A DNA stretch of 64,000 nucleotides from Candidatus Dormiibacterota bacterium (GTDB lineage Bacteria; Chloroflexota; Dormibacteria; Aeolococcales; Aeolococcaceae). Positions 3,497 to 61,007 of the stretch are shown in pieces. The stretch is taken from positions 73,124 through 137,123 of the forward strand of contig CAVVJH010000001.1 in the NCBI GenBank assembly GCA_963748505.1, in the 5' to 3' direction. A program made the position numbers and the translations under genes. The stretch's first letter is position 1; every line of letters begins with the position of its first letter. The notes below the pieces were generated by a model that had not been told where the DNA came from, ran no database searches, and saw only the letters and a program-made list of their open reading frames with translations.

Positions 3497-4267
3497 GTGA
3501 TGAACGCTCCACGACCACTCGAGCACACCGTTGCGCTGGTCACCGGCGCATCCAGTGGCATCGGCGAGGCGACTGCCGTCGCGCTCGCCAATCTCGGCGC
3601 CGCGGTTGCCCTTGCCGCGCGTCGCACGGAACGCCTCGAGGCCCTGGCGGCACAACTCCGCGCCGAGGGCGCCACCGTGTCGGTGATCACCGCCGATATC
3701 ACTGAGCAAGCCCAGGCAACCGCCGCCGTCGAACAAACGGTGTCGGAACTGGGGCGGCTCGACACGTTGATCAACAACGCAGGTGTGATGCTGCTCGGGC
3801 CGGTCATCGGAGCCCCGGTGGAGGAGTGGGAGCGCATGGTGCGCATCAACCTTCTCGGGCTCTTGTACTGCACCAACGCCGCGCTGCCACATCTGCTCCG
3901 CGCAGCCGAGGACAGCCCACGCGGTGTCGCCGACCTCGTGAACATCAGCTCGGTCGCGGGTCGCGAGACACGCAACGGCAGCGCCGTGTACAACGCGACG
4001 AAACACGGCGTCGGCGCCTTCAGCGACGCGCTGCGCAAGGAGATCTCCAGGCGACACGTGCGCGTCTCCCTGGTGGAACCTGGCGCGGTCGCGACCGAGC
4101 TCGCCGGCCACAACCGCCCGGAGGTGCGCGCCGCCCTGGAAGAACGCTTCTCGACCTTCGAGCTTCTGCAGGCAGACGATATCTCGGCGATCATCACCTT
4201 CATCGTCTCGCGGCCCCGCCATGTGGCGGTCAACGAGGTCCTCGTCCGGCCCACCGAACAGGAGTAG
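3497..4267 (+). CDS. short-chain dehydrogenase/reductase (SDR) family oxidoreductase
   Basis: TGASSGIG Rossmann motif; NISSVAG...Y...K catalytic region; 256 aa. Confidence 0.9.
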   Translation: MMNAPRPLEHTVALVTGASSGIGEATAVALANLGAAVALAARRTERLEALAAQLRAEGATVSVITADITEQAQATAAVEQTVSELGRLDTLINNAGVMLLGPVIGAPVEEWERMVRINLLGLLYCTNAALPHLLRAAEDSPRGVADLVNISSVAGRETRNGSAVYNATKHGVGAFSDALRKEISRRHVRVSLVEPGAVATELAGHNRPEVRAALEERFSTFELLQADDISAIITFIVSRPRHVAVNEVLVRPTEQE

Positions 4268-4287
4268 TCCCGGGGCCGGACGCAGGG

Positions 4288-4671
4288 TTAGGTGCCGGCT
4301 GCCGATTCCTTGCGGTCGGGCAGCTTGAAGTGAGGGTTCTCGATGATGCCGAAGACGTTGCCGCCGGCATCGCGGAGGGTCGCGACGCGTATACCGTCGC
4401 CGACATCCTGCACCTGACCGTGCTCAGTCATGCCTGACGCGAGCAGCGCAGCGTAGGCGTCGCTCGCGCTGCCGACACCCCAGTAGGCGATCGGACCCAC
4501 TGCCACATCGCCGCCAGGGTCGAGGCCAAGCTCGTAGCCGGCGACATTGAATCCGACGTAGAAAGGCTGATCGAAATACGGCTCCTGGCCAAGCACTGCC
4601 GTGTACGCCGCTTTCGCCGCAGCAAGGTCTGGTGCCGGATAGATGACCGTCCGCAATCCAAGGAATTCCAC
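4288..4671 (-). CDS. VOC (glyoxalase/bleomycin-resistance) family protein
   Basis: 127-aa protein VEFLGLRTVIYPAPDLAAAKAAY...GNVFGIIENPHF. GTG start preceded by GGAGAA ribosome-binding site (RBS). The longer 4288..5394 ORF is an upstream extension into the neighbouring gene's alternate frame. Confidence 0.8.
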   Translation of the reverse strand: MEFLGLRTVIYPAPDLAAAKAAYTAVLGQEPYFDQPFYVGFNVAGYELGLDPGGDVAVGPIAYWGVGSASDAYAALLASGMTEHGQVQDVGDGIRVATLRDAGGNVFGIIENPHFKLPDRKESAAGT

Positions 4672-4721
4672 GTGGTTCTCCTGTTGGTTCGTCTGGCCGC
4701 CGATGCTACTCGCAGCGACCT

Positions 4722-6338
4722 TTAGAGGACGACGGTGACGGTGGTCGAGCCACTGCCGGAGACGCCGTCGTTGTCGGTGACCGTGACCGTGATCGTGTAG
4801 CTCCGCAACAACGCGCTGTATGCGTGTGCAAGCACGAAGGTGGTGCCGTTGAGAGTCAGGACATGCGTACCGCTGCCGTCGCCGTAGTTGACCGTCGCGG
4901 TGAACGTGTGGTGAGCCAGATCGCTGTCGGTGAAGCTGCCGGAACCCGAGAAATGCCCCAGTACCGCGACACCTCCGGCCTTCACGGTGACCACCGGCGG
5001 CAGGTCGGGTGGAGGCGTCGGGGCGGGGGTGGGCATCGGGGTGCTCGTCGGGGCGGGAGTTGGTGTGGGTCCGGGCGATGGGGGCACGGTGGGTGTCGGA
5101 GTCGAGTTCGGCGGAGGGGTGGGACCGCCCGGCGCTGTCGTGCCGCCGCCGGGTGCGGGCGTCCCACCACCTGCACCGGTCGTTCCGGTCTGTCCGGGCG
5201 CGGGAGGCACGCTCGGTATCGAACCGGGCGGGGATGGCGTTGCCCCGCCGGTGCTGTGCGTGGGTTGGCCGCCCGTGGACACGGTCGAGATCCCCGAGGT
5301 GGGGCCGGCCGTCGGGCTCGGGCTGGTCAGTGCACCGGGACCGGTGAGTGCGATGGCAGTGGTTCCGGACATAACGGCCGCGCCCCAGTTCCATCCGAGC
5401 CGGTCAACCCAGCCAATCAGGGGGAGCTGCGCGATCCAGGAACCGAAGCCCACGACCCGCCAGAGCCGGCCCATTGAGATGTTGAGGAATGCGCGCACCA
5501 CCACCGGGTCGAACTGGCTCCCCGAGCACTTCACCAGTTCCTGCCGGGCCGCTGACACACTGACCGGCTTGCGATACGGCCGCACCGCGGTCATCACCTC
5601 GTAGGAATCCGCGACCGCCACGATGCGGCCGGCGAGCGAGATCTGATTGCCGGCGAGCCCACGGGGGTATCCGCGGCCGTCGAATCGCTCGTGGTGTTGG
5701 GGCACAGCGTCCGCCCACTCGCCGAGCCAGGAGCTGAGTGGCCCGATGAGCCGCGCCCCTTCCTCAGGATGGCGTTTGACGGCGTCGAACTCCGCGCTGG
5801 TGAGCTTTGCCGGCTTGGAGAGAATTGTTGCCGGCACGACCAGCTTGCCGATGTCGTGCAGCAGCGACGCCCAGCGAAGCCGAGCGCGGTCGCTCGGCGC
5901 CAGCTTCATCTCATCGGCGATGAGGTCAGCGAAGACCCGAACGCGCTCTGAGTGACCACGTGTCTGCCGATCGTGCACGCTCAGGGCCGCGACCAGCCCG
6001 AGCACTTTCTGCATGTACGCGGTGTCGCCGCCGGTGACCCCCTTGTCGCGTGCCTCCTGTAGCTGGCGCTGCAGGTCGCGTGGCTTGCCCACGCGCCGGG
6101 CGATCGCGAAGCGTTTCGGGGCGCGGTCCGGGAAGAGGAGCGAGAGATTGAGCAGGGCCGCAAGCGGGAGGAGGCGGCGCCCAGCGCGCTCCAGCGCGAC
6201 GATCACCACCAGCATGACGAGGCTGACCCCGGCGAACGACAGCGCGGCCGGACCGAGACCGTTCGGGCGCGGCAGGAGGCTGGTCATGATGACGCCTGCC
6301 GCGATGCCGGCAACGGCGGGGAGCACGACCACTGACAC
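4722..6338 (-). CDS. membrane-anchored HD-GYP domain phosphodiesterase with C-terminal Pro/Thr-rich linker and Ig/PKD-like beta domain
   Basis: HD motif (HDRQTRGHSERV, LLHDIGK) and HHERFDGRGYP (GYP). N-terminal TM helices. PTPTPAPTSTPMPTPAPTPPP low-complexity linker. C-terminal beta-rich ~110 aa. Confidence 0.85.
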   Translation of the reverse strand: MSVVVLPAVAGIAAGVIMTSLLPRPNGLGPAALSFAGVSLVMLVVIVALERAGRRLLPLAALLNLSLLFPDRAPKRFAIARRVGKPRDLQRQLQEARDKGVTGGDTAYMQKVLGLVAALSVHDRQTRGHSERVRVFADLIADEMKLAPSDRARLRWASLLHDIGKLVVPATILSKPAKLTSAEFDAVKRHPEEGARLIGPLSSWLGEWADAVPQHHERFDGRGYPRGLAGNQISLAGRIVAVADSYEVMTAVRPYRKPVSVSAARQELVKCSGSQFDPVVVRAFLNISMGRLWRVVGFGSWIAQLPLIGWVDRLGWNWGAAVMSGTTAIALTGPGALTSPSPTAGPTSGISTVSTGGQPTHSTGGATPSPPGSIPSVPPAPGQTGTTGAGGGTPAPGGGTTAPGGPTPPPNSTPTPTVPPSPGPTPTPAPTSTPMPTPAPTPPPDLPPVVTVKAGGVAVLGHFSGSGSFTDSDLAHHTFTATVNYGDGSGTHVLTLNGTTFVLAHAYSALLRSYTITVTVTDNDGVSGSGSTTVTVVL

Positions 6339-49599: not shown

Positions 49600-51190
49600 C
49601 AGCGGGGTCGACGGCGCGACGGAAGCGACTGGCACGGACGGCGCACCAGCGGTTGCTCCTGCGAGTTCCATCGTGCTGCCGCCGGTGGTTGCGGCGACGA
49701 GCCGGCCATTCTGCTTGACGTACGAGACCGTCTTTTGATGGAAGAATCCAGTCTTGTTGGTGACGGCCGCAACGATCGTGAGCGGAATGCCCAGCCCGAA
49801 CGCGATGAGCACGGGCGCCGCGACCTCGAGGTTGCTGGCGTTGATCGGCCGTCCGGAAAGACCACCTGATATCCGATCCAGAACAGGAAGAGGCCACCGG
49901 CCAGGGGAAGGAGTCCGGCGAGGAAGAACAGCGTGGGTGAGGTGAAGAGCACCTTCCGAAAAGCCCAGGCGCAGGCGATGCCCGTGATTCCGTAGTAGAA
50001 GGCGACCAGCACCCCGATCTCGAGGATGAGGTTCCCGAACTGGTTGTTGACCGCCTCGATGAACGTCGACGCGATGACCAGGATCGAAAGCCCGGTGGTC
50101 ACGAGCGTGCCCACCCACGGGGTCTGCCAGCTCTTGTGCACGATCCCGAACATTTTCGGGAAAACGCCATCCCGGGCCATCGAGTAGGAGAGCCGGCTCG
50201 ATGGCAGGAGCGTCGTCTGAATGCGTGGCGACGGTGGAGGAGAGGACCGCCAGCACCATGAGGTACGCGATCGGCGGACCGCTCAGCGACTGTGCGAAGA
50301 AGTACAGGATGTCGCCGCCGTTGTTACCGATGTTGTTGAGGTTGTTCGCCGAGGTGTACATGTCGATCGCCGTGGCTGCAAAGAGGAACAGCACCAGCAG
50401 GACGACCATGCTGAGGAGGCCCGCGTATCCGGGTGTCGTCTCAGCATCCTTGGTTTCCTCGTTGACGTTGGCCGCAGTGTCCCAGCCCCAGAAGAAGAAC
50501 ACCCCGAGTGCGGCACCCGCCGCCAGCCCACTGATGGATTTCAACGCCAGCGGGTTGAACCAGTGGCAGGTGCACCGGCTGCGCGGCTGGTGTGCCACTG
50601 AGACCGTGCACGAACGCCGCGATGCAGAACCCGACGACGATGAAGTACTCGATCGCGAGCAGAACCCATTGGAAGTTCGCGGTGAGCCGGATGCCCTTGA
50701 CGACCATATAGGTCACAAAGAGCAGCCACGCGATGCCGGCGACCGCGACCCAGAACTGGCTCCCGGCTACGTCGTTGCTGATCCAGCCCCAGCTGTTGAG
50801 GAGTTGCAGCGTGTACTGGCCGGCGATGATCGGCGCGGCCGCGCAGAACAGGACGTTCGCGCAGAGCTGCACCCATCCACCGAACCACCCGACGTAGGGA
50901 CTCAACGTCCGGCTGACCCATGAGTAGGATGCGCCGCAGTTGGGGTCCTGCCGGTTGAGGTAGTAGTAGGCAAGCGCGATGAATGAGACGGGGAAGAAGC
51001 TGACCAGGATCGCCGCAGGCGAAGCCACGCCGCTGACCACGAACAGAAACGCGATCGTTGCCGCGAGGCTGTAGGCCGGCGCGACGCTCGACGTTGCGAT
51101 GATCGTGGCGTCGAAGAGATTCAGCGTGTTGGTCTTGAGCGCCGAGACCACAGGTTTCCCGTGGACGATCGGCTCCGCTACCGTCGCCAT
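49600..51190 (-). pseudogene. APC-superfamily amino acid permease, at least 3 apparent frameshifts; 3' end uncertain
   Basis: N-terminal TMs in ORF 50441..51190, middle in ORF 49402..50598, further TMs in ORF 49383..50180 (MARDGVFPKMFGIVHKSWQTPWVGTLV...). Confidence 0.6.
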
Positions 51191-51242
51191 ATCTGTTTCC
51201 TCACCATGGCTTCCTCCTCAGTCCTCGGTCGAGCCTGGATCG

Positions 51243-52685
51243 TCAGGCTTCGATGTTGCTCATCACGTGTTTGATGCGGGTGTAATCCTCGAATCCGTAC
51301 ATCGAGAGATCCTTGCCGTATCCCGAGTGCTTGTAGCCCCCATGGGGCATCTCCGACACCAGCGGGATGTGCGTGTTGATCCAGACGCACCCGAAGTCGA
51401 GCGCTCGCGCCATGCGCATGGCACGGCCGTGGTCACGTGTCCAGACGCTGGACGCGAGCCCGTATTCGACGCCGTTTGCCCATTCCAGAGCCTTGGCTTC
51501 GTCGTCAAATCGCTGCACCGTGATGACCGGTCCGAAGATCTCCTGCTGGATGAGGTCGTCGCCCTGCTCCAGCCCGGAGATGACGGTGGCTTCGTGGAAA
51601 TAGCCGTTCGCTCCGACCTGGTGCCCGCCCGCGACGACCTCCGCGTGCGACGGCGCACCCTCGACGAGCGCGCGTACGCGCCGGAGCTGCGTGGCGTTGT
51701 TGAGCGGGCCGAAGGCGACCTCGTCATCGTCGGGAGCGCCCGTCTTGTTGGCCGCGGCCTGCTCGGCCAGCGCGGCGATCAGCTCGTCGTGAATCGACGA
51801 TGACGCGAGCACGCGGGTCGCTGCCGTGCAGTCCTGGCCGGCGTTGAAATAGCCGGCCATGGCCACGGTCTCGGCAGTCGCGGCGATATCGGCGTCGTCG
51901 AACACGATGACCGGCGCCTTGCCCCCGAGTTCGAGATGCACGCGCTTGAGATCGCTTGCAGCGGCCTTGGCGACTTCGAGCCCGGCACGGACGCTGCCGG
52001 TGATCGACGCCATCGCCGGGATCTTGTGGGTCACCAGCGCGGCACCGGTCGTGGGGTCGCCGCAGACGACATTGAAAACCCCGGGTGGCAGGAACTCGGC
52101 CATGATCTCGGCCATCAAGAGCGTGGTGACCGGTGTGGTGTCCGAAGGCTTGAGGACCACTGTGTTGCCGGCGGCAATTGCCGGCGCCCACTTCCAGATG
52201 GCCATGACCATCGGGTAATTCCAGGGCGTGACCTGCGCGCAGACACCGACCGGCTCGCGCCGGATCATCGATGTGTGCCCGGCCATGTACTCGGCCGCAC
52301 TCCTGCCTTCGAGAATGCGTGCGCAGCCGGCGAAAAAGCGCACCGGGTCGATCAGTTGCGGGATCTCCTCGCTGCGGGTGAGTGAGATCGGCTTGCCGGT
52401 GTTCTCGCATTCGAGTTGCACGAACTCTTCCGCGCGTGCCTCGAACGCGTCGGCGATCTTGAGCAGTGCCATGCTTCGCTCGCGCGGCGTCGTGTCGCGC
52501 CAGACCGTAAAGGCGCGCTGCGCGGCTCGCAGTGCCAGATCGACGTCCGCGGCGCTCGACACCGGCGCCCGGGCGAATTCCTCGCCGGTCGCGGGGTTGA
52601 TCAGCGGCGTCCACGAGTCGGAAGTCGCCTCCCGATGCTCGCCGTCGACGAAGTTGCGCAACGTCCGGGTTGCGACCGCACTCAT
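51243..52685 (-). CDS. NAD(P)-dependent aldehyde dehydrogenase
   Basis: [23 protein letters not shown] (Cys), start [17 protein letters not shown]. Confidence 0.9.
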
Positions 52686-54052
52686 GCTTTGAGATCCCTC
52701 GCCAGCTCGCGGAAGTTCGAGACGTAGCGCTGGACGTCGCTGGATGCGTGCTGCACCGAGAGCGTCCAGTTCTCCTCCGCACCCGGCGCCATCAGCACGC
52801 CGCGGTTGGTCTGGTAGAGCCACGACACGTAGGCGAGCGACTTGTCCATCGCGGCGTAGTCGCGATAGTTGCGGACGGGGTCCTTGCGGTAGGTCACGCA
52901 ACCGCGCGCACCCATGGAGACGACGTGGAAGGGCAGCTCGAACTCAGACATCACCTCGCGGAGGCCGCCGCTCAACTCCTCGGTGAGGGCGTCCAGATGC
53001 GAATATGCCTGCCCGGTCATGACCTCGAGCAGCGTCGCGCGCGACGCGGCCGTGGTGAGCGGGTTGCCGTTGAAGGTGCCGAGCTGCGCGACCTTCCCGT
53101 CGCTGATCGTCGCCATGATGTCGGCTCGACCACCGACCGCGCCGCAGGGGAGACCTCCACCGATCGCCTTGGCGAGACACACGATGTCCGGCACCACGCC
53201 AAATCGCTCGGTCGCCCCGCCGGGGGAGATCGTGATGCCGGTTTTGACCTCATCGAAGATGACGACCGCCCCGTGTTTGTGCGCGATCTCGACCACACCG
53301 GCGAGATAGCCATCCTCGGGGAGCACGAACCCGATGTTCATCATCGCGGGCTCGACGATCACGCCGGCCACCTCACCCTCGTGCGCCGCAAAGGCCCGCT
53401 CCAGACCGGCAAGGTCGTTGAACCCGACCACCGTCGTCAGCTCCACCGTGGACCGCGGAATCCCGCCGGTCATCGGCACCGAGTTCGGGGACTCCGCGTC
53501 GCCCATGGCCTCGACCGGGGGCTCCACCGAGACCAGCAAGGCATCGTGGTGCCCGTGGTACGAGGCTTCGATCTTGATCAGACGCTCGCGGCCGGTGAAG
53601 CCACGCGCCAGACGCACCGCATCCAGCGTCGATTCGGTGCCACTGTTGGTGAAGCGCCACTGGGGCTGCTGGAACCGTCGTGCGAGCTCGCGCGCGACCA
53701 CGATGTTCTCGGCCACCGGCTGCGCGAAATGCGAGCCGCGGTGCATTTGCGCGTCGACCGCCGCCACGATCGCCGGATGCGCGTGGCCGACCACCATGAC
53801 GCCGAAGCCGTTGTGGAAGTCGACGTACTCGTTGCCGTCCACGTCCCAGACATGGCTGCCCTTGCCATAGTCGATGAAGACCGGTTGCGGCGGCGTGTCC
53901 TGGAACGAGCTGGGGACTCCGCGCGGAATGACTTCCTTGGCCTCGGTCCACATCTCGTGCGACCGCGCACGGTGTGCACGAAACTCGGTTTCCTCGCGGG
54001 CAGTCAGCGCCGCCACCCGATCCGACGCGACATTACCCAGGGTCGTAGCCAT
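52682..54052 (-). CDS. class III aminotransferase (glutamate-1-semialdehyde aminomutase-like)
   Basis: [18 protein letters not shown]; [10 protein letters not shown]; 456 aa uninterrupted. Its TGA overlaps the ATG of the downstream aldehyde dehydrogenase (ATGA). Confidence 0.9.
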
Positions 54053-54157: not shown

Positions 54158-54472
54158 TCAGCGCCAGTCGACCTCGGTGACCTGACCGTCGGCAATCTCG
54201 ACGGTCCGCGTGGCGCAGGGCCCCGCCCCCCACAGAGTCCAGGTGCCGGCATCGAGCGACGGGAAGAGCGCCACGGGAAGGCGCTCGCCAGCCATTGGCC
54301 GGGCGTGCACTCCGGTGTGGGTACGGGCATCGGGTTGCCCATCACGGCTGACCTCGATCTCGGAATGGAGGAGCGCTGCCGGCACGATGACCAGCAGCGC
54401 CCCAGCCCCCCCGCCGATATCGAGGACCGCGGGCCCGTCAGGGACGGAACCCGCGGACTCGATCTCGGTCAA
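54158..54472 (-). CDS. conserved hypothetical protein (104 aa) translationally coupled to the DUF4331 gene
   Basis: ATG overlaps the TGA of the upstream gene (ATGA). Coding-like composition. Confidence 0.5.
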   Translation of the reverse strand: MTEIESAGSVPDGPAVLDIGGGAGALLVIVPAALLHSEIEVSRDGQPDARTHTGVHARPMAGERLPVALFPSLDAGTWTLWGAGPCATRTVEIADGQVTEVDWR

Positions 54473-55845
54473 CTCGGAGTGTCGAATCCGTTGAGCGGTG
54501 TGCCCAGGTACGGGAAATGATCGATGTAGCGGTTGTGTCCGGGGACCGAGCCGTCGCTGAATTGCGCAGCGGAGAAGTCGCTCACCACACCCGCGGCCCC
54601 GTCCGGTGTGTAGCTGGAGTCGACCAGCGGAATCGTGACGCCCGCGATGGCGCGGATCTCGATGGTGGCGACGTCGTCGAACACGCGCCGGCCGTTCGGG
54701 AAGCCCGCAAGGTCCCCACCGAGGATGCCGTTGATGTTCGGCGTCGACGCCGGCGGGATCGCCATGTTCAGGCGAAGCAGGTCGGCGGGAGTCGAGCCGG
54801 TCGAGTTCTGGAAGCCCGGGATCACGCCGGTCGGGATTCCGACCAGCAGGATCGCTTCGAGGTCGACACGGTCGGGGGTGTAGGCCGCGAGGTGCGGGAA
54901 CACGCCCGGGTAGAGCACGGGGAGGAGCCCGGCGAGCTCAGGATGCGCGTAGTTCGCAGCGAACTGGGCGTCGTTCCTGGGTTCGGTCGAGTTCCAGAAG
55001 TCCTTCTTGCCGATGGGGATGACGACCTCGTTGATCAGCGGCATTCCCAGGCGGGAAACCTGCACCCATGGACCGACGTCGGTGGAGGATCCACCGTGCA
55101 GGACGGTCGACTTGCGGCGGCTCGCGGAGGTGTAGACACCGATGACCGAGTCCGCTGCAGCAGGGTCGGTGGGATCGGCACCGTGCGGCGTGAGGTGCGT
55201 CTTGGGGATCTGGATCGCGATGGTGTGCACGTTGAGGTGCTTGCTGGAGTCCACGCCGCCGACGGCCGGAAGCGGGATGAGGTGCAGGTTCTGGAAGGGC
55301 CGCAGCGCGCCGAGGTCGAAGATCGACCCGAGGTCGACGTAGAAGCCTTCACGGCGCTGGCCGGCAAAGACCCATCCACCGTCCAGGGGATGTACTGCGG
55401 CACGCGCGAGCGCGCCGTAGTTCGGGGTCGACCGGACGCCGACGTTCACCGGCGGGCAGGCGAGCTTGTTGGCGAGCACTTCGGCGTGGCCACCCTTGAT
55501 CCGGGTCACCGAGTAGAACTGGCGAACGTTCCAGCTCGAGCTGGTCAAGCTGCTGATCGGACCGGTGTTGTACAGGAACGTGTTCGGATTCGTGTACTCG
55601 GTGGTGAACTTGAACTGGTACTTGATCGCGTCCTTGACGCTGCCACCGTTGGTGATATTGATCTCGTAGAGAACGTCGTCACCGAAGTTGTAGAAGTTCG
55701 GCCCACCATCGGGTCCCTCGAGCGGGATGTAGTTGGCGATCAGCGTTACGGTGTCTGGATGATCCGGACTGACGAACGCGTAAAGGTCAGTGCTGTCCGC
55801 AACCGGGTCTTTTGCGATGCCCGGTGCTTCACGATGCGAAGACAT
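54469..55845 (-). CDS. DUF4331 family protein
   Basis: N-terminus MSSHREAPGIAKDPVADSTDLYAFVSPD characteristic of DUF4331 (from memory, not verified). 458 aa uninterrupted, no signal peptide. Confidence 0.85.
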   Translation of the reverse strand: MSSHREAPGIAKDPVADSTDLYAFVSPDHPDTVTLIANYIPLEGPDGGPNFYNFGDDVLYEINITNGGSVKDAIKYQFKFTTEYTNPNTFLYNTGPISSLTSSSWNVRQFYSVTRIKGGHAEVLANKLACPPVNVGVRSTPNYGALARAAVHPLDGGWVFAGQRREGFYVDLGSIFDLGALRPFQNLHLIPLPAVGGVDSSKHLNVHTIAIQIPKTHLTPHGADPTDPAAADSVIGVYTSASRRKSTVLHGGSSTDVGPWVQVSRLGMPLINEVVIPIGKKDFWNSTEPRNDAQFAANYAHPELAGLLPVLYPGVFPHLAAYTPDRVDLEAILLVGIPTGVIPGFQNSTGSTPADLLRLNMAIPPASTPNINGILGGDLAGFPNGRRVFDDVATIEIRAIAGVTIPLVDSSYTPDGAAGVVSDFSAAQFSDGSVPGHNRYIDHFPYLGTPLNGFDTPS

Positions 55846-55887
55846 GAGTACCCCTCGTGAGGATGTGAATGCTGTTTATTCCGGCCG

Positions 55888-56157
55888 TCAGCGCGTGACG
55901 CGCTGCAGACGCCGGACGAGCGACGGGTCCTTGGTGACGACCGCGCGATGGCCGACCATGACCGTGATTTCGCCTGTGCCCGCATCGCTGACGTACGCGG
56001 TCATGGGCTCGCTGGACACTGGACCGTCACTTGCATCGGCGACGTTCTGGGCCGCCTCCACCAGCGTGCTCGGCCCGGCGATCAGCCCCATCGCCGCTAC
56101 TCCGCCGGCTGCCCCCACCGTCGTGGACAGAAACGTCCGCCGTGTCACCTTGGCCAT
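55888..56157 (-). CDS. small Tat-signal secreted protein (89 aa)
   Basis: MAKVTRRTFLSTTVGAAGGVAAMGLIAG with AxA site (VEAAQN). Confidence 0.55.
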   Translation of the reverse strand: MAKVTRRTFLSTTVGAAGGVAAMGLIAGPSTLVEAAQNVADASDGPVSSEPMTAYVSDAGTGEITVMVGHRAVVTKDPSLVRRLQRVTR

Positions 56158-56278
56158 GTGTACACCTCTCCTGAGCGGTCGCTGACGATCCGGTTGGCCG
56201 TCTTGGCACCGCCCTGTCACCGCTTGGTACGGACGGGTCGGGACGCCGGATCACTTCGCCTCAGGCGAGGGCGGAAGG

Positions 56279-56953
56279 TCAGGTCCAGGCGGGCACGAGC
56301 ACCTCGACGTTGTCGGCAGTGACACGCGTCTTGATCGTCGGCAGCGGGTTCAGCCGATAGTCGCCGGGATTGGCCTCGCCGGTCAGGTTGAAGCTCATCG
56401 GATGGCACGGGCAGGCGAGCTTGCTCGCCGCCGGGTCCGGGACCAGCGTGCATCCCTGGTGGGTGCAGACGGCGCTCAACCCCCGAATCTCCCCATCGAG
56501 TGTGAAGAGAACGCCCTGGATACCGCCGGCGGCGAACTGCTTGATCTTCCCCGGCGTGACGTCGGCGAGGGTGGCGACCGCGACCCAGGCGCTGACGTAC
56601 GGCTCGATCGGCCCGGTACCGCTCTGCGCCTCGGTGAACACCTCGTGGAGGCGCTCGGCGCCAACTCCGGCGGCCACCGACGCTGCCACCGTGGCGATGC
56701 CACCGGCCAGGAACCGCCGCCGGCGAATTTGGGCGTCGGCCCAGCCGGGCTCGTGGTCCACGGCTTCGCGGAGCTTGCGGCCGAGGCTGTCGACGAATGC
56801 CGGAGAGGGATCGGCGCCGCCGGGATGGGCCGCACGCAGGCGGGTGGCGGTCTGCATCGCCGCCGAGTCGTCGTCCGCGGGCGACCGTGGAGGGCGGCGA
56901 TTGTCGACGAGCGCCGCGATGAAGCGGGACAGCCGGCGATCAGCTTTGGACAT
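56279..56953 (-). CDS. Rieske [2Fe-2S] domain membrane protein with ~75-aa cytoplasmic N-terminal extension, in anti-sigma-factor position
   Basis: Rieske boxes CTHQGC and CPCHPMS. Single TM after RRRFLAGG. Start overlaps the last 14 nt of the ECF sigma gene. Confidence 0.8.
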   Translation of the reverse strand: MSKADRRLSRFIAALVDNRRPPRSPADDDSAAMQTATRLRAAHPGGADPSPAFVDSLGRKLREAVDHEPGWADAQIRRRRFLAGGIATVAASVAAGVGAERLHEVFTEAQSGTGPIEPYVSAWVAVATLADVTPGKIKQFAAGGIQGVLFTLDGEIRGLSAVCTHQGCTLVPDPAASKLACPCHPMSFNLTGEANPGDYRLNPLPTIKTRVTADNVEVLVPAWT

Positions 56954-57473
56954 CTGGGACTCCGTTGCTTGCGGCGCGGCGGAGCGCCCTCAGCTGCAAC
57001 ACCTTGGCGTTGGCCACACTCACGCCCATGGCAGCGGCCGTCTCGCGAATCGAGTAGCCGCGCAGGAAGCGGAACTCCAGCACGCTTCGATAGTTGGAGG
57101 GCAGCCCATTGAGGATGGGGCTGACATCCACCTCGTGCTCGCGCTCGGCAGGGGTGGCGGCGTCGCGTTGGTCATCGAACTCCATGAGGACGGTTCCGTG
57201 GCGCTGGCGCCAGACGTCGGCAAGGACGGTACGCGCCGTGGTTCGTAGATAGGCGCGGATCTCCGCGGCCGAGACATCCGACCGGAGGCGCGGGAGTGCC
57301 CGAAGAAAGGTGGTCGAGGTCACGTCCTCGGCGTCGGGGGTGTTCCCGGTCCGTGAGTACACATATCGATAGAGGGGAGCGACATGCTCCTGATAGACGG
57401 ACTCCCAGTCGCTCGGGGAGCGTTCTGGGGCGCCCACCACGCGAAGCGGGGGAGGAGATTCGGGCACGGCCAC
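56940..57473 (-). CDS. ECF (extracytoplasmic function) sigma-70 family RNA polymerase sigma factor
   Basis: Region 2 (VYQEHVAPLYRYVYSRTGNTPDAEDVTSTTFLRAL) and region 4 (YRSVLEFRFLRGYSIRETAAAMGVSVANAKVLQLRALRR). Confidence 0.85.
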   Translation of the reverse strand: MAVPESPPPLRVVGAPERSPSDWESVYQEHVAPLYRYVYSRTGNTPDAEDVTSTTFLRALPRLRSDVSAAEIRAYLRTTARTVLADVWRQRHGTVLMEFDDQRDAATPAEREHEVDVSPILNGLPSNYRSVLEFRFLRGYSIRETAAAMGVSVANAKVLQLRALRRAASNGVPDVQS

Positions 57474-57545
57474 GGTTGTAGTGTCCTACGTCACCGAGTT
57501 ACGCAATCGGGTATTGGGGGCATGATTGTGGTGAGGGTTTGAACG

Positions 57546-58598: not shown

Positions 58599-59185
58599 CT
58601 CCGGCTCCGCCGGTGCTCCGGCGAGACGGGGTCACCCCGGACGGGCGTCCGTATCTGGTCAGGCCGTCCCGCGACGACGACGCCGCCGGGCTGGCCGACC
58701 TCATCGATGCGGTGGCCGGGGAAGGGGAGTTGATCGCGGCCGTCCCCGGCGAGCCCGACACCATCGAGCAGAGCGCGCGCCTGGTGTCGATCGTGCTCGA
58801 GGGAGGGCTCACGCTCACGCTCGAGATCGACGGCGTCCCGGCCGGGCACGTGATGGTGCTGCGCCGAGCCGGTGCGCACTATGCCCACGTCGGTGAAATC
58901 GCCATTCTTGTCAGCAACGCATATCGCGGTGCCGGGCTCGGTCGCCTGCTCATGGAAATGGCGATCGAATGGGGTCGCGCGGTGGGGCTGGCCAAGCTGA
59001 CGCTGCGCGTCTTCCCCGACAACGCGCGCGCCATTTCGCTCTATCGATCGCTCCACTTCCGCGACGAGGGTCTCGTGACCGGCGAGGTCCGCATGCCGAG
59101 CGGTGACCGGGACATGCTGCTCATGGGGCTCACCCTCCATGCCCCGGACGTGACCTCGCCCCCTGGTATCCTGCGATCCGAATGA
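58595..59185 (+). CDS. GNAT family N-acetyltransferase
   Basis: Start MTPAPPVLRRDG, ATGA-coupled to the hydrolase gene. Motif A RGAGLGRLLM. The long 57737..59185 ORF is an alternate-frame artefact. Confidence 0.75.
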   Translation: MTPAPPVLRRDGVTPDGRPYLVRPSRDDDAAGLADLIDAVAGEGELIAAVPGEPDTIEQSARLVSIVLEGGLTLTLEIDGVPAGHVMVLRRAGAHYAHVGEIAILVSNAYRGAGLGRLLMEMAIEWGRAVGLAKLTLRVFPDNARAISLYRSLHFRDEGLVTGEVRMPSGDRDMLLMGLTLHAPDVTSPPGILRSE

Positions 59186-60036
59186 GCGACTCGCGCCCGA
59201 TCGGCGTGTTCGACTCCGGTGTCGGCGGCCTGACCGTGCTCCGCGAGATACGCCATCAGATGCCGGCGGAGCGCCTCATCTATGTCGCCGACCTGGAGCA
59301 CTTCCCCTACGGGCCGCGCCCGCAAGGGCAGGTGCGCACCCTGGCGCTGGACATCATTGAGATGCTGGTCGGCATGGATACCAAGCTGGTGGTGATCGCC
59401 TGCAACACGGCAACCGCCGCCGCCTTGCACACCGCGCGCGAGCGGTTCGACATTCCCGTCGTCGGTGTGATCGCCCCCGGGGCGCAGGCGGCCGCGGACG
59501 CAACCAGGAACGGGCGCGTGGCGGTCCTGAGCACCGAGGGGACCCGCGCCAGCGGCGAGTACGTCCAGGCGATCAAGGAGGCCAACCCCGGGGATCGTCG
59601 TGTGCAGCGAGGTCGCCGCCGACCTGGTCGAGATCGTCGAGGACGGCGACGCCGACACGGCGCGCGCCGACGCGGCGCTGGCGCCGGTGCTTGACCGCGT
59701 GGTCGCGTGGGGCGCCGACACGCTCGTCCTCGGCTGCACCCATTACCCCTTGCTGCGGTCGGCCCTGGAGCGCGTGATCGGATCCCGGCCGATGCAGGTG
59801 GTCGACAGCGCGGGGACCACGGCCGCACGGGTCGCCCGGATCCTCGAGGTCAACCGCCTGGGCGCCGAAGCCACCGGTGCAGTCACGACATCGCTGACTC
59901 CCAGACCCAGATGCTGGTGACCGCGGCGCCCGCCCGATTCCAGGGGAACGCCGCGCGACTCTTCGATGAGCCCCTCCCGGAGGCGCGTTTGGTCAGGCCG
60001 ATACGCGAAGTGGTCGGCTTGGCCACCGGATCATGA
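59182..60036 (+). CDS. murI: glutamate racemase MurI; two apparent frameshifts (near 59590 and 59890)
   Basis: IGVFDSGVGGLTV, VIACNTATAAAL in ORF 59182..59694. LVLGCTHYPLL in ORF 59600..59920. C-terminus in ORF 59707..60036. Confidence 0.75.
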
Positions 60037-61007
60037 GCATCGCCGCCGACGAGCTCCTGGAGCCGATCGCCGCGGAGTTGGTCGAGTTCGAGCAGCGCCT
60101 CGACGCAGAGATCGCCTCCGACCTGGGGCCGATGGCCAGTGCGATGTCGCACATCGTCAAAGCGGGCGGCAAGCGTCTGCGCCCCGCCCTGGTGATCCTC
60201 TCGGCACGGCTGGGCGACGCCAACCCGAACGACGTCTTCAACCTGGCGATGGGCATCGAGTTCATTCACACCGCAACGCTCGTGCATGACGATCTCATCG
60301 ACAAGGCGCCGACGCGGCGTGGGATCACGACGATTCACGAAGCGCTCGGCCCGGACCCGGCGGTGATCATTGGGGACTATTACTTCGCCAAAGGCGCGTA
60401 TCTGCTGGCGGAGATCGGCATGCCGGCAATCGACTCCGCGATCAGCAACGCGGTCATGACCATCTGCATGGGCGAGTTGCTACAGATGACCAGCCGCAAC
60501 GCCTATGACCAGACGCTCGCCGACTATCACCGCAAGATCGGCCGCAAGACGGCAACCCTGGTCAGCACCTGCTGCTACGGCGGCGGGCTCATCGCGGGGC
60601 TGGACAGCGAGGCCGTGGAGCGGCTCCGGCGCTACGGCCACAGCCTCGGTATGGCGTTCCAGATCGCCGACGACGTGCTTGATTACGTGGCGACCAGCGC
60701 AGAGGTCGGCAAACCGGTGGGCGCCGACCTTCGCCAGGGCACGGTGACGCTGCCCCTCATGCTCGCCCTGAAGGACCGCGAGGTCGGCGAGCGACTTCGC
60801 AGAGATTCTTGCCAAGAATGACCTGAACGATGAGGATTTCGAGACTGTGGTGGCACTGGTGCGGGGGTCGGAGGCAATCGCCAAGGCGGAGCACGGTGCG
60901 CAGGAATTTGCCAGGGAAGCCGCCGCCGAACTGTCGGGTTTCCGGAATCGCCCGCGCGGACCACGCTGGAACGAGTCTGCGACTACGTCGTCGAGCGCCG
61001 GATCTGA
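60033..61007 (+). CDS. trans-polyprenyl diphosphate synthase (GGPP/heptaprenyl type); two apparent frameshifts near the 3' end
   Basis: First DDxxD (LVHDDLIDK) and second (FQIADDVLDY). C-terminal pieces in ORF 60847.. and a third frame ending ...CDYVVERRI*. Confidence 0.7.

Follow-up and report, generated by a model that had tools for sequence, protein, structure and literature searches.

What controls an extracytoplasmic function (ECF) sigma factor whose gene runs into that of a membrane-bound Rieske protein, and how many of the genes that follow belong with the two? The question is raised by five minus-strand genes in a 64,000-nt stretch of DNA from a Candidatus Dormiibacterota bacterium (assembly GCA_963748505.1, contig CAVVJH010000001.1), here called the window, in whose coordinates positions are given. 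A preliminary description of this DNA had placed the Rieske protein in the position of an anti-sigma factor and joined all five genes in one operon, with a DUF4331 protein as partner. What was computed here are the genes, their domains and motifs, their co-occurrence and their modular build; on this basis we propose that the gene at 56940-57473 codes for an ECF sigma factor and the gene at 56279-56953 for the single-pass anti-sigma factor cognate to it, a relationship to which we give a probability of roughly 0.7-0.8. The unusual features of this anti-sigma factor are most likely three: a new sigma-associated N-terminal domain (N-domain), a twin-arginine translocation (Tat) signal-anchor and an extracytoplasmic Rieske [2Fe-2S] sensor domain. 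The conserved unit is the sigma-Rieske pair, not the five-gene operon.

The sigma factor and the Rieske protein

All five open reading frames (ORFs) are real, intact and full length on the minus strand, as the preliminary description had it, and the end of the sigma gene overlaps the start of the Rieske gene by the 14 nt that it had given, read directly in the sequence as ATGTCCAAAGCTGA. The pair comprises the following features.

57487..57502, minus strand: candidate sigma motif cGTAAC-N7-CGTA, 13 nt upstream of the sigma GTG start codon
56940..57473, minus strand: ECF (group 4) sigma factor, 177 aa; Sigma70_r2, Sigma70_r4_2 and TIGR02937 above cutoffs
56279..56953, minus strand: Rieske protein, whole gene, 224 aa; PF00355
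56729..56953, minus strand: Rieske protein residues 1-75, conserved cytoplasmic N-domain, proposed anti-sigma domain (conservation, AlphaFold 2 (AF2) model)
56654..56728, minus strand: Rieske protein residues 76-100, RRRRFLAGG and hydrophobic helix, read as Tat signal-anchor
56282..56596, minus strand: Rieske protein residues 120-224, predicted extracytoplasmic Rieske [2Fe-2S] domain, bc1/b6f type

The sigma factor consists of regions sigma2 and sigma4 only (Sigma70_r2, E=8e-10, residues 27-91; Sigma70_r4_2, E=4.5e-9, residues 121-166; TIGR02937, 54.5 bits against a cutoff of 42.9) and with 177 aa falls within the definition of ECF (group 4) sigma factors (~170-200 aa). No cutoff of a named ECF subfamily or equivalog was reached, the best NCBIfam model being TIGR02983 with 68.6 bits against 141.6, and the best relatives in the PDB, BldN, SigL and SigE, match only at E=1e-9 to 1e-14. 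All the domain assignments proposed beforehand, Sigma70_r2/r4, Rieske PF00355 and DUF4331 PF14224, were recovered in the profile searches.

In the Rieske protein, the PF00355 match (E=2.8e-12, residues 123-194, 46.8 bits against a cutoff of 20.3) and the presence of both the CTHQGC and the CPCH motif bear out the Rieske domain originally described. The ligands C163, H165, C181 and H184 are conserved together with the disulfide C168/C183, and the domain is modeled by AF2 with a predicted local distance difference test score (pLDDT) above 90, the closest folds being the Chlorobaculum Rieske iron-sulfur protein (8hn2), Synechocystis PetC3 (5cxm) and the arsenite oxidase subunit AioB. The single transmembrane (TM) helix also stands, with its identity refined: a twin-arginine motif, (S/T)RRxFL in the family and IRRRRFLAGG in the window, directly precedes the hydrophobic segment, with R78 invariant and R79 conserved in at least 90% of members, and the helix is hence predicted to be a Tat-dependent signal-anchor. 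Of the members of Rieske type, 134 of 136 carry an RRx-hydrophobic motif, compared to 1 of 5 non-Rieske members. The motif thus tracks the Rieske domain, which fits export of a cofactor-loaded fold, and since the ligands (CxH..C/CxCH) are likewise intact in 131/136 members, we argue that a cofactor-bearing fold is under selection.

Rieske proteins that depend on the Tat pathway are well known, among them PetC/QcrA and Streptomyces Sco2149, a membrane Rieske protein with an internal Tat-dependent helix. The window protein resembles them in the twin-arginine motif directly before the anchor helix and in a bc1/b6f-type domain with CTHxGC...CPCH and the disulfide. It differs from PetC/QcrA in its conserved 75-aa cytoplasmic extension, in the sigma gene with which it is always paired and in scores far below the family cutoffs. 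Identity as a respiratory QcrA/PetC subunit, named at the outset as a possible refutation of the anti-sigma reading, was considered and rejected (NF050121, 22 bits against 275; NF010001, 35 against 154), and no gene for a cytochrome b or c was noticed among the called or predicted neighbours in the inspected loci, although no search aimed at such genes was made.

An N-terminal domain that keeps its sigma factor

For comparison, 84 loci with a Rieske gene were collected and their six-frame ORFs searched with the window proteins. Full-length homologues of the Rieske protein, with 35-92% identity, come from metagenome-assembled genomes and metagenomes of Dormibacterota and Chloroflexota; they are named Candidatus Dormibacterota, so that the Actinobacteria, initially taken as the related group, were the wrong place to look. 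In all 20 of the 84 loci in which the Rieske protein carries the N-domain, an orthologous ECF sigma gene lies directly upstream on the same strand and overlaps it by 4-14 nt. Among the 64 Rieske genes without the N-domain, a co-directional sigma gene upstream was found in none, and 3 of these loci have a sigma match nearby on the opposite strand. In most of the 20 loci the gene that comes after the Rieske gene is convergent or has no relation to the pair, examples being dxs and an opposite-strand GGDEF gene; in a single locus, L002, a cupredoxin gene follows directly.

The N-domain has the near-invariant residues R7, L15, R19, R20, P21, A36, L39, A42, P49, F53, L57 and R62, and AF2 places helices at 3-16, 27-42 and 51-66, with a fourth at the membrane. 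A profile of 19 N-domain sequences yielded no PDB match below E=0.3 and no known anti-sigma Pfam family. A profile search for the domain in 1.84 billion proteins retrieved 542 representatives, with a Rieske domain in most of the full-length matches. Residues 1-75 hold no HxxxCxxC and no other Cys or His motif, in agreement with the initial statement that ZAS and RskA folds are lacking.

The same N-domain occurs in a second class of proteins, where a TM segment of Sec type leads to an unrelated C-terminal domain of ~110 aa (motif GQIVAYRGxPSWVFMNV...) without a Pfam match. Members of this class (P0207, P0218, P0223, P0235, P0249, P0256 and P0263; loci L085-L087 and L092-L103) are, by their sequence, putative anti-sigma factors as well: in 14/14 loci with upstream sequence an orthologous sigma gene precedes directly, with a 4-nt overlap, and one of these sigma factors is 50% identical to that of the window. 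Taking 21 Rieske-class loci (window included) and 14 non-Rieske-class loci of Dormibacterota and Chloroflexota together, the N-domain gene directly follows the orthologous sigma gene, stop and start overlapping, in 35/35 loci, and the sigma factors upstream of N-domain proteins are 39-91% identical to the window sigma. Adjacency and translational coupling to the sigma gene are, in other words, independent of the sensor domain. The pairing is far beyond chance and recurs in every related locus examined; that the N-domain keeps its sigma factor while the outer domain is swapped is a classical signature of anti-sigma factors. The anti-sigma position that the preliminary description gave the Rieske protein is thus supported. 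Natural in-frame fusions of sigma and anti-sigma factor were also sought among the hits, with frameshift debris (P0129, P0261) as the only result.

Alternatively, the Rieske protein may simply carry electrons in the periplasm, as donor or acceptor for a cupredoxin or an oxidase, say; it would share a transcript with the sigma factor and be under its control without binding it, and would use the N-domain for membrane insertion or for docking to a partner. Such a role would agree with the names that homologues carry in databases (b6f iron-sulfur subunit, ring-hydroxylating ferredoxin), with the intact ligands and disulfide, with the cupredoxin gene of L002 and with an N-domain unlike known anti-sigma domains. 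However, it is the N-domain and not the Rieske domain that tracks the sigma factor, and the sigma partner is kept where the Rieske domain is replaced. Furthermore, no redox-partner gene is conserved alongside, the respiratory and oxygenase models of NCBIfam stay far below their cutoffs (22-35 bits against 154-275 for qcrA/petC), and variants with altered ligands persist, retaining both Tat motif and sigma partner, which argues against an obligatory electron-transfer role and fits a sensory or regulatory domain. We regard electron transfer as the function of this protein as very improbable.

As a cognate anti-sigma factor, the Rieske protein would join the class I anti-sigma factors (RseA/sigmaE, RsdA/SigD, RslA/SigL, RskA/SigK), with which it shares a gene directly downstream of and translationally coupled to that of the sigma factor, a cytoplasmic N-domain of ~70-90 aa that is predicted to be helical, one TM helix, a variable extracytoplasmic sensor and a likely promoter motif upstream of the sigma gene. 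The anti-sigma domain of that class is a bundle of 3-4 helices that binds sigma2 and sigma4. Unlike them, the Rieske protein has no detectable homology to the zf-HC2, RseA_N, RskA or RsdA families, no HxxxCxxC, a predicted Tat-type anchor and, as putative sensor, a Rieske [2Fe-2S] fold. Zinc-thiol switches, partner proteins and proteolysis are the routes by which anti-sigma factors are known to receive their signals. Two proteins with the Fe-S cluster on a sigma-controlling protein are comparable, both soluble and cytoplasmic: RsmA of Streptomyces coelicolor, a [2Fe-2S] anti-sigma factor of HATPase type, and RshA, which is of ZAS type. For the latter, from M. tuberculosis, an Fe-S cluster has been reported (PMC3427169). 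The clusters of RsmA and RshA are located in or beside the sigma-binding part, whereas here the cluster is predicted to lie in a Rieske domain of its own on the outer side of the cytoplasmic membrane. No Rieske, extracytoplasmic Fe-S or Tat-exported anti-sigma factor is described in the open literature that was searched, although the group may already be catalogued in the ECF Hub; searches on DUF4331, on Rieske with anti-sigma, on PF03640 and on ECF reclassification gave nothing relevant. Very probably, then, this is the known architecture of a single-pass anti-sigma factor equipped with an unrecognised type of anti-sigma sensor.

The upstream motif, its candidate targets and the proposed mechanism

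A search for a conserved ECF promoter motif upstream of 57473 had been suggested, and a candidate was found. In 19 of the 20 Rieske-class loci with upstream sequence, yGTAAC-N7/8-(C)GTA precedes the sigma gene, 5-20 nt before the start codon; non-Rieske-class sites have CCTATTA or CGTATT as their second block. The copy at 57487-57502 is the only one in the window, where 0.26 are expected by chance; related loci hold 29 copies in 257 kb and unrelated loci 7 in 800 kb. The motif is strictly specific in orientation and position, being found 5-110 nt ahead of genes on its own strand, and a spacer of 7-8 nt separates its blocks in every one of the 25 sites aligned. Relatives also carry it in front of the genes listed here.

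L008, L010-L012, L014, L085, L094, L096-L098 and L102: Lipoprotein_15 (PF03640) lipoprotein gene, ~165-185 aa, with motif
L017: plastocyanin-family lipoprotein gene with motif
L085: YceI gene with motif

In both anti-sigma classes, Lipoprotein_15 genes with the motif occur close to the anti-sigma gene or downstream of it, and Lipoprotein_15 looks like a signature, recurrent target of this sigma family. Judged by its placement, the motif acts like an autoregulated promoter of the ECF family and is a candidate for that function. In L085, a non-Rieske locus, the YceI gene with the motif is followed, ~1.3 kb further downstream, by genes for the small and large subunits of a [NiFe]-hydrogenase (3537-5165, plus strand).

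Canonical ECF promoters have a -35 block (xGAAC-like) and a -10 block (CGT-like) 16-17 nt apart. Two conventional readings of the motif were tried and rejected. With GTAAC as a canonical -35 block, nothing is conserved 16-17 nt downstream and CGTA is conserved inside the would-be spacer; a sigma-54 (-24/-12) promoter is similar in geometry, but the blocks GTAAC and CGTA lack the invariant GG/GC dinucleotides. If the second block is the -10 element, the first would be positioned near -25, and the start codons, which come 9-14 nt after the second block, suggest leaderless or near-leaderless sigma mRNAs. Alternatively, GTAAC-N7/8-CGTA may serve as the operator of some other DNA-binding regulator, or as an element that is not a promoter at all, since a spacing of 7-8 nt is incompatible with canonical -35/-10 geometry and both blocks resemble a direct repeat in sharing CGTA. 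Against this stand the specificity in orientation and position and the co-variation of the motif with the sigma family in two anti-sigma classes; also, no other regulator gene is conserved nearby. An operator is in our view a minor possibility, to be kept in mind alongside the candidate promoter.

The mechanism that we infer for the sigma-Rieske pair would operate as follows. The cytoplasmic three-helix N-domain (residues 1 to ~70) would hold the sigma factor, with residues 76-100 as an uncleaved twin-arginine signal-anchor. The Rieske C-domain would fold and acquire its [2Fe-2S] cluster before it leaves the cytoplasm through the Tat pathway. Loss or oxidation of the cluster, or failure of its assembly, may then destabilise or mislocalise the anti-sigma factor, which is the weakest step of the scheme, and proteolysis would subsequently remove it and free the sigma factor. 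Freed sigma would transcribe from yGTAAC-N7/8-CGTA, thereby presumably reaching its own operon and, in relatives, genes of small secreted proteins (Lipoprotein_15, cupredoxin, YceI). Taken as a whole, mechanism included, we consider this explanation probable; that the state of the cluster is the signal sensed is a more tentative proposal, somewhat short of an even chance. A bolder generalization, which we think doubtful, is that the pair represents a new ECF signalling class of Dormibacterota and Chloroflexota in which a Tat-exported Rieske anti-sigma factor reports Fe-S or redox status and the promoter blocks are placed 7-8 bp apart at about -25/-12. In such a class, cluster assembly together with Tat proofreading, or alternatively damage to the cluster outside, would decide whether the anti-sigma factor is retained.

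A neighbouring explanation keeps the anti-sigma factor and gives the Rieske domain the part of a scaffold for a protein or ligand, the signal being a bound partner (a lipoprotein or cupredoxin) or envelope stress relayed via proteolysis. The non-Rieske sister proteins are consistent with this, as they share the same sigma factor and the Lipoprotein_15 target, which makes the regulon independent of Fe-S chemistry, and so are the His-to-Asp, His-to-Gly and His-to-Arg ligand changes in some members. On the other hand, four ligands and the disulfide pair are kept by 131 of 136 proteins and the Tat motif by 134. We hold the scaffold to be unlikely, and a cluster-bearing sensor on a cognate anti-sigma factor remains the preferred reading.

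Several observations nevertheless weigh against that reading. The N-domain is without sequence similarity to any known anti-sigma domain, and its AF2 model reaches a pLDDT of only 55-79. The ligands are altered to CxD..C in 4 members, CxCG in 1 and CPCR in P0136; the His-to-Asp form (CTDxGC) is found in L001 (P0079), P0077, P0080 and P0214 and occurs in a subclade with L001 among its members, and CPCR/CPCG in P0136 and P0177. Given these members, redox chemistry may be dispensable. The block sequences GTAAC and CGTA are ECF-like, yet the spacer of 7-8 nt is ~10 bp too short, no conserved block is present further upstream in the aligned sites, and the identity of the motif as a promoter is accordingly uncertain. 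In the window, the gap before the DUF4331 module contains no sigma motif. Finally, all organisms with the pair are uncultured.

If the proposal is true, Fe-S assembly and the Tat pathway are tied to transcription through a new type of input for ECF signalling, and the annotation of several hundred proteins, at present b6f iron-sulfur subunit or ring-hydroxylating ferredoxin, needs correction. It would also be a first point of access to gene regulation in Dormibacterota, a phylum without a cultured model, and the compact two-gene unit with its defined motif makes it testable in a heterologous host. Should the motif be a promoter, its short spacing challenges the assumed fixed geometry of ECF promoters.

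The DUF4331 genes and the surrounding region

The remaining three genes of the locus form a trio, which begins 121 nt after the Rieske gene.

55888..56157, minus strand: 89-aa Tat-signal protein (MAKVTRRTFL) with a conserved C-terminal segment of ~40 aa, first of the DUF4331 trio; TIGR01409
54469..55845, minus strand: DUF4331 protein, 458 aa, without signal peptide; PF14224
54158..54472, minus strand: p104, 104 aa, TTG start, third of the trio

The 89-aa Tat-signal protein and the DUF4331 protein without signal peptide are as previously described. The former starts at the ATG at 56157, preceded by a GGAGAGG ribosome-binding site, and scores 19.8 bits for the Tat signal model TIGR01409 (cutoff 16.7); the latter matches PF14224 over profile positions 1-421 of 421 (E=1e-133), the domain beginning at residue 2 (MSSHREAP). 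The coupling of p104 has to be corrected: it was given as ATGA, but the start codon is TTG and overlaps the DUF4331 stop by 4 nt (TTGA). No Pfam or NCBIfam match was obtained for p104, no PHROGs match for any trio protein and no PDB sequence relative for the DUF4331 protein, of which the AF2 model is poor.

The DUF4331 protein belongs to a subtype in Ktedonobacteria, Chloroflexota and Acidobacteriota, the members of which all begin with MSSHREAP, lack a signal peptide, have the same length and are 67-72% identical. In L088-L091, a Tat-signal homologue of 91-101 aa (MAKxTRRxF) precedes the DUF4331 gene. A p104-like domain is encoded immediately downstream in L088 and L089, as the N-terminus of a co-directional protein of 293-294 aa, and next to the DUF4331 gene in L091, as a 118-aa protein on the opposite strand. 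The further ~190-aa domain to which it is fused in L088/L089 has no Pfam match.

Conservation of the sigma-Rieske-DUF4331 neighbourhood thus holds in part. The sigma-Rieske pair is kept in all related loci, and the trio adjoins it in no more than four loci, those of the window and of the three relatives nearest to it (L004-L006); the other 17 of the 21 Rieske-class loci and every non-Rieske-class locus lack it. Trios in other phyla (L088-L091) have no sigma or Rieske gene within 5 kb, which speaks against an enrichment of DUF4331 genes next to ECF sigma genes and, with it, against the five-gene operon with a DUF4331 partner. The trio is an independent module, adjacent to the sigma pair only in this lineage. 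One may still suppose that all five genes are one functional operon, in which DUF4331, the Tat escort and p104 serve as the dedicated output of the sigma/Rieske sensor, given that they are co-directional, that no intrinsic terminator was found, and that the arrangement is kept in L004-L006. Apart from the distribution just given, the 121-nt gap argues against this, as it holds a conserved block of its own (~90 nt) and no sigma motif. We judge a single operon to be unlikely on these grounds; read-through from the pair may co-transcribe the trio, so that regulation by the sigma factor in this manner is possible but unsupported, and control of DUF4331 by sigma and Rieske protein is altogether questionable.

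The block upstream of the 89-aa gene (window ~56158-56250, minus strand) is conserved in L004, L005 and L006 and reads …CCGTACCAAGCGGTGACAGGGCGGTG(A/C)CAAGACGGCCAACCGGATCG…; it has no Rfam match and could be the promoter or leader of the DUF4331 module. A degenerate sigma motif in this place was considered and discarded, the best candidate, CGTCCC-N8-CGTA, having two mismatches in the invariant GTAAC.

By analogy with MelC1/MelC2, a Tat hitchhiker pair in which a small Tat-signal protein is encoded upstream of a larger, signal-less partner, the small Tat protein of the trio may escort the DUF4331 protein out of the cell. The analogy extends to the trio only: the 89-aa protein is similar to MelC1 in the signal region alone (E=0.02) and DUF4331 is unrelated to tyrosinase, so that such co-export is put forward here as pure conjecture.

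An Rfam scan of the region gave no match besides a spurious miRNA hit. Several neighbouring genes in the window look frameshifted or truncated relative to orthologues (59182-59920 and 60033-60821, plus strand; 50441-51190, minus strand), probably through assembly indels or as pseudogenes: murI is split over two frames (170 and 106 aa, compared to 278 aa in L001), the polyprenyl synthase has 262 aa (~324-350 aa in orthologues) and the amino-acid permease 249 aa (536 aa in L006). After the trio (50441-54052, minus strand), genes for a class-III aminotransferase, an aldehyde dehydrogenase and the amino-acid permease follow in an order that is kept in L004-L006; these are probably a catabolic cluster for amines or amino acids, unrelated to the sigma-Rieske pair.

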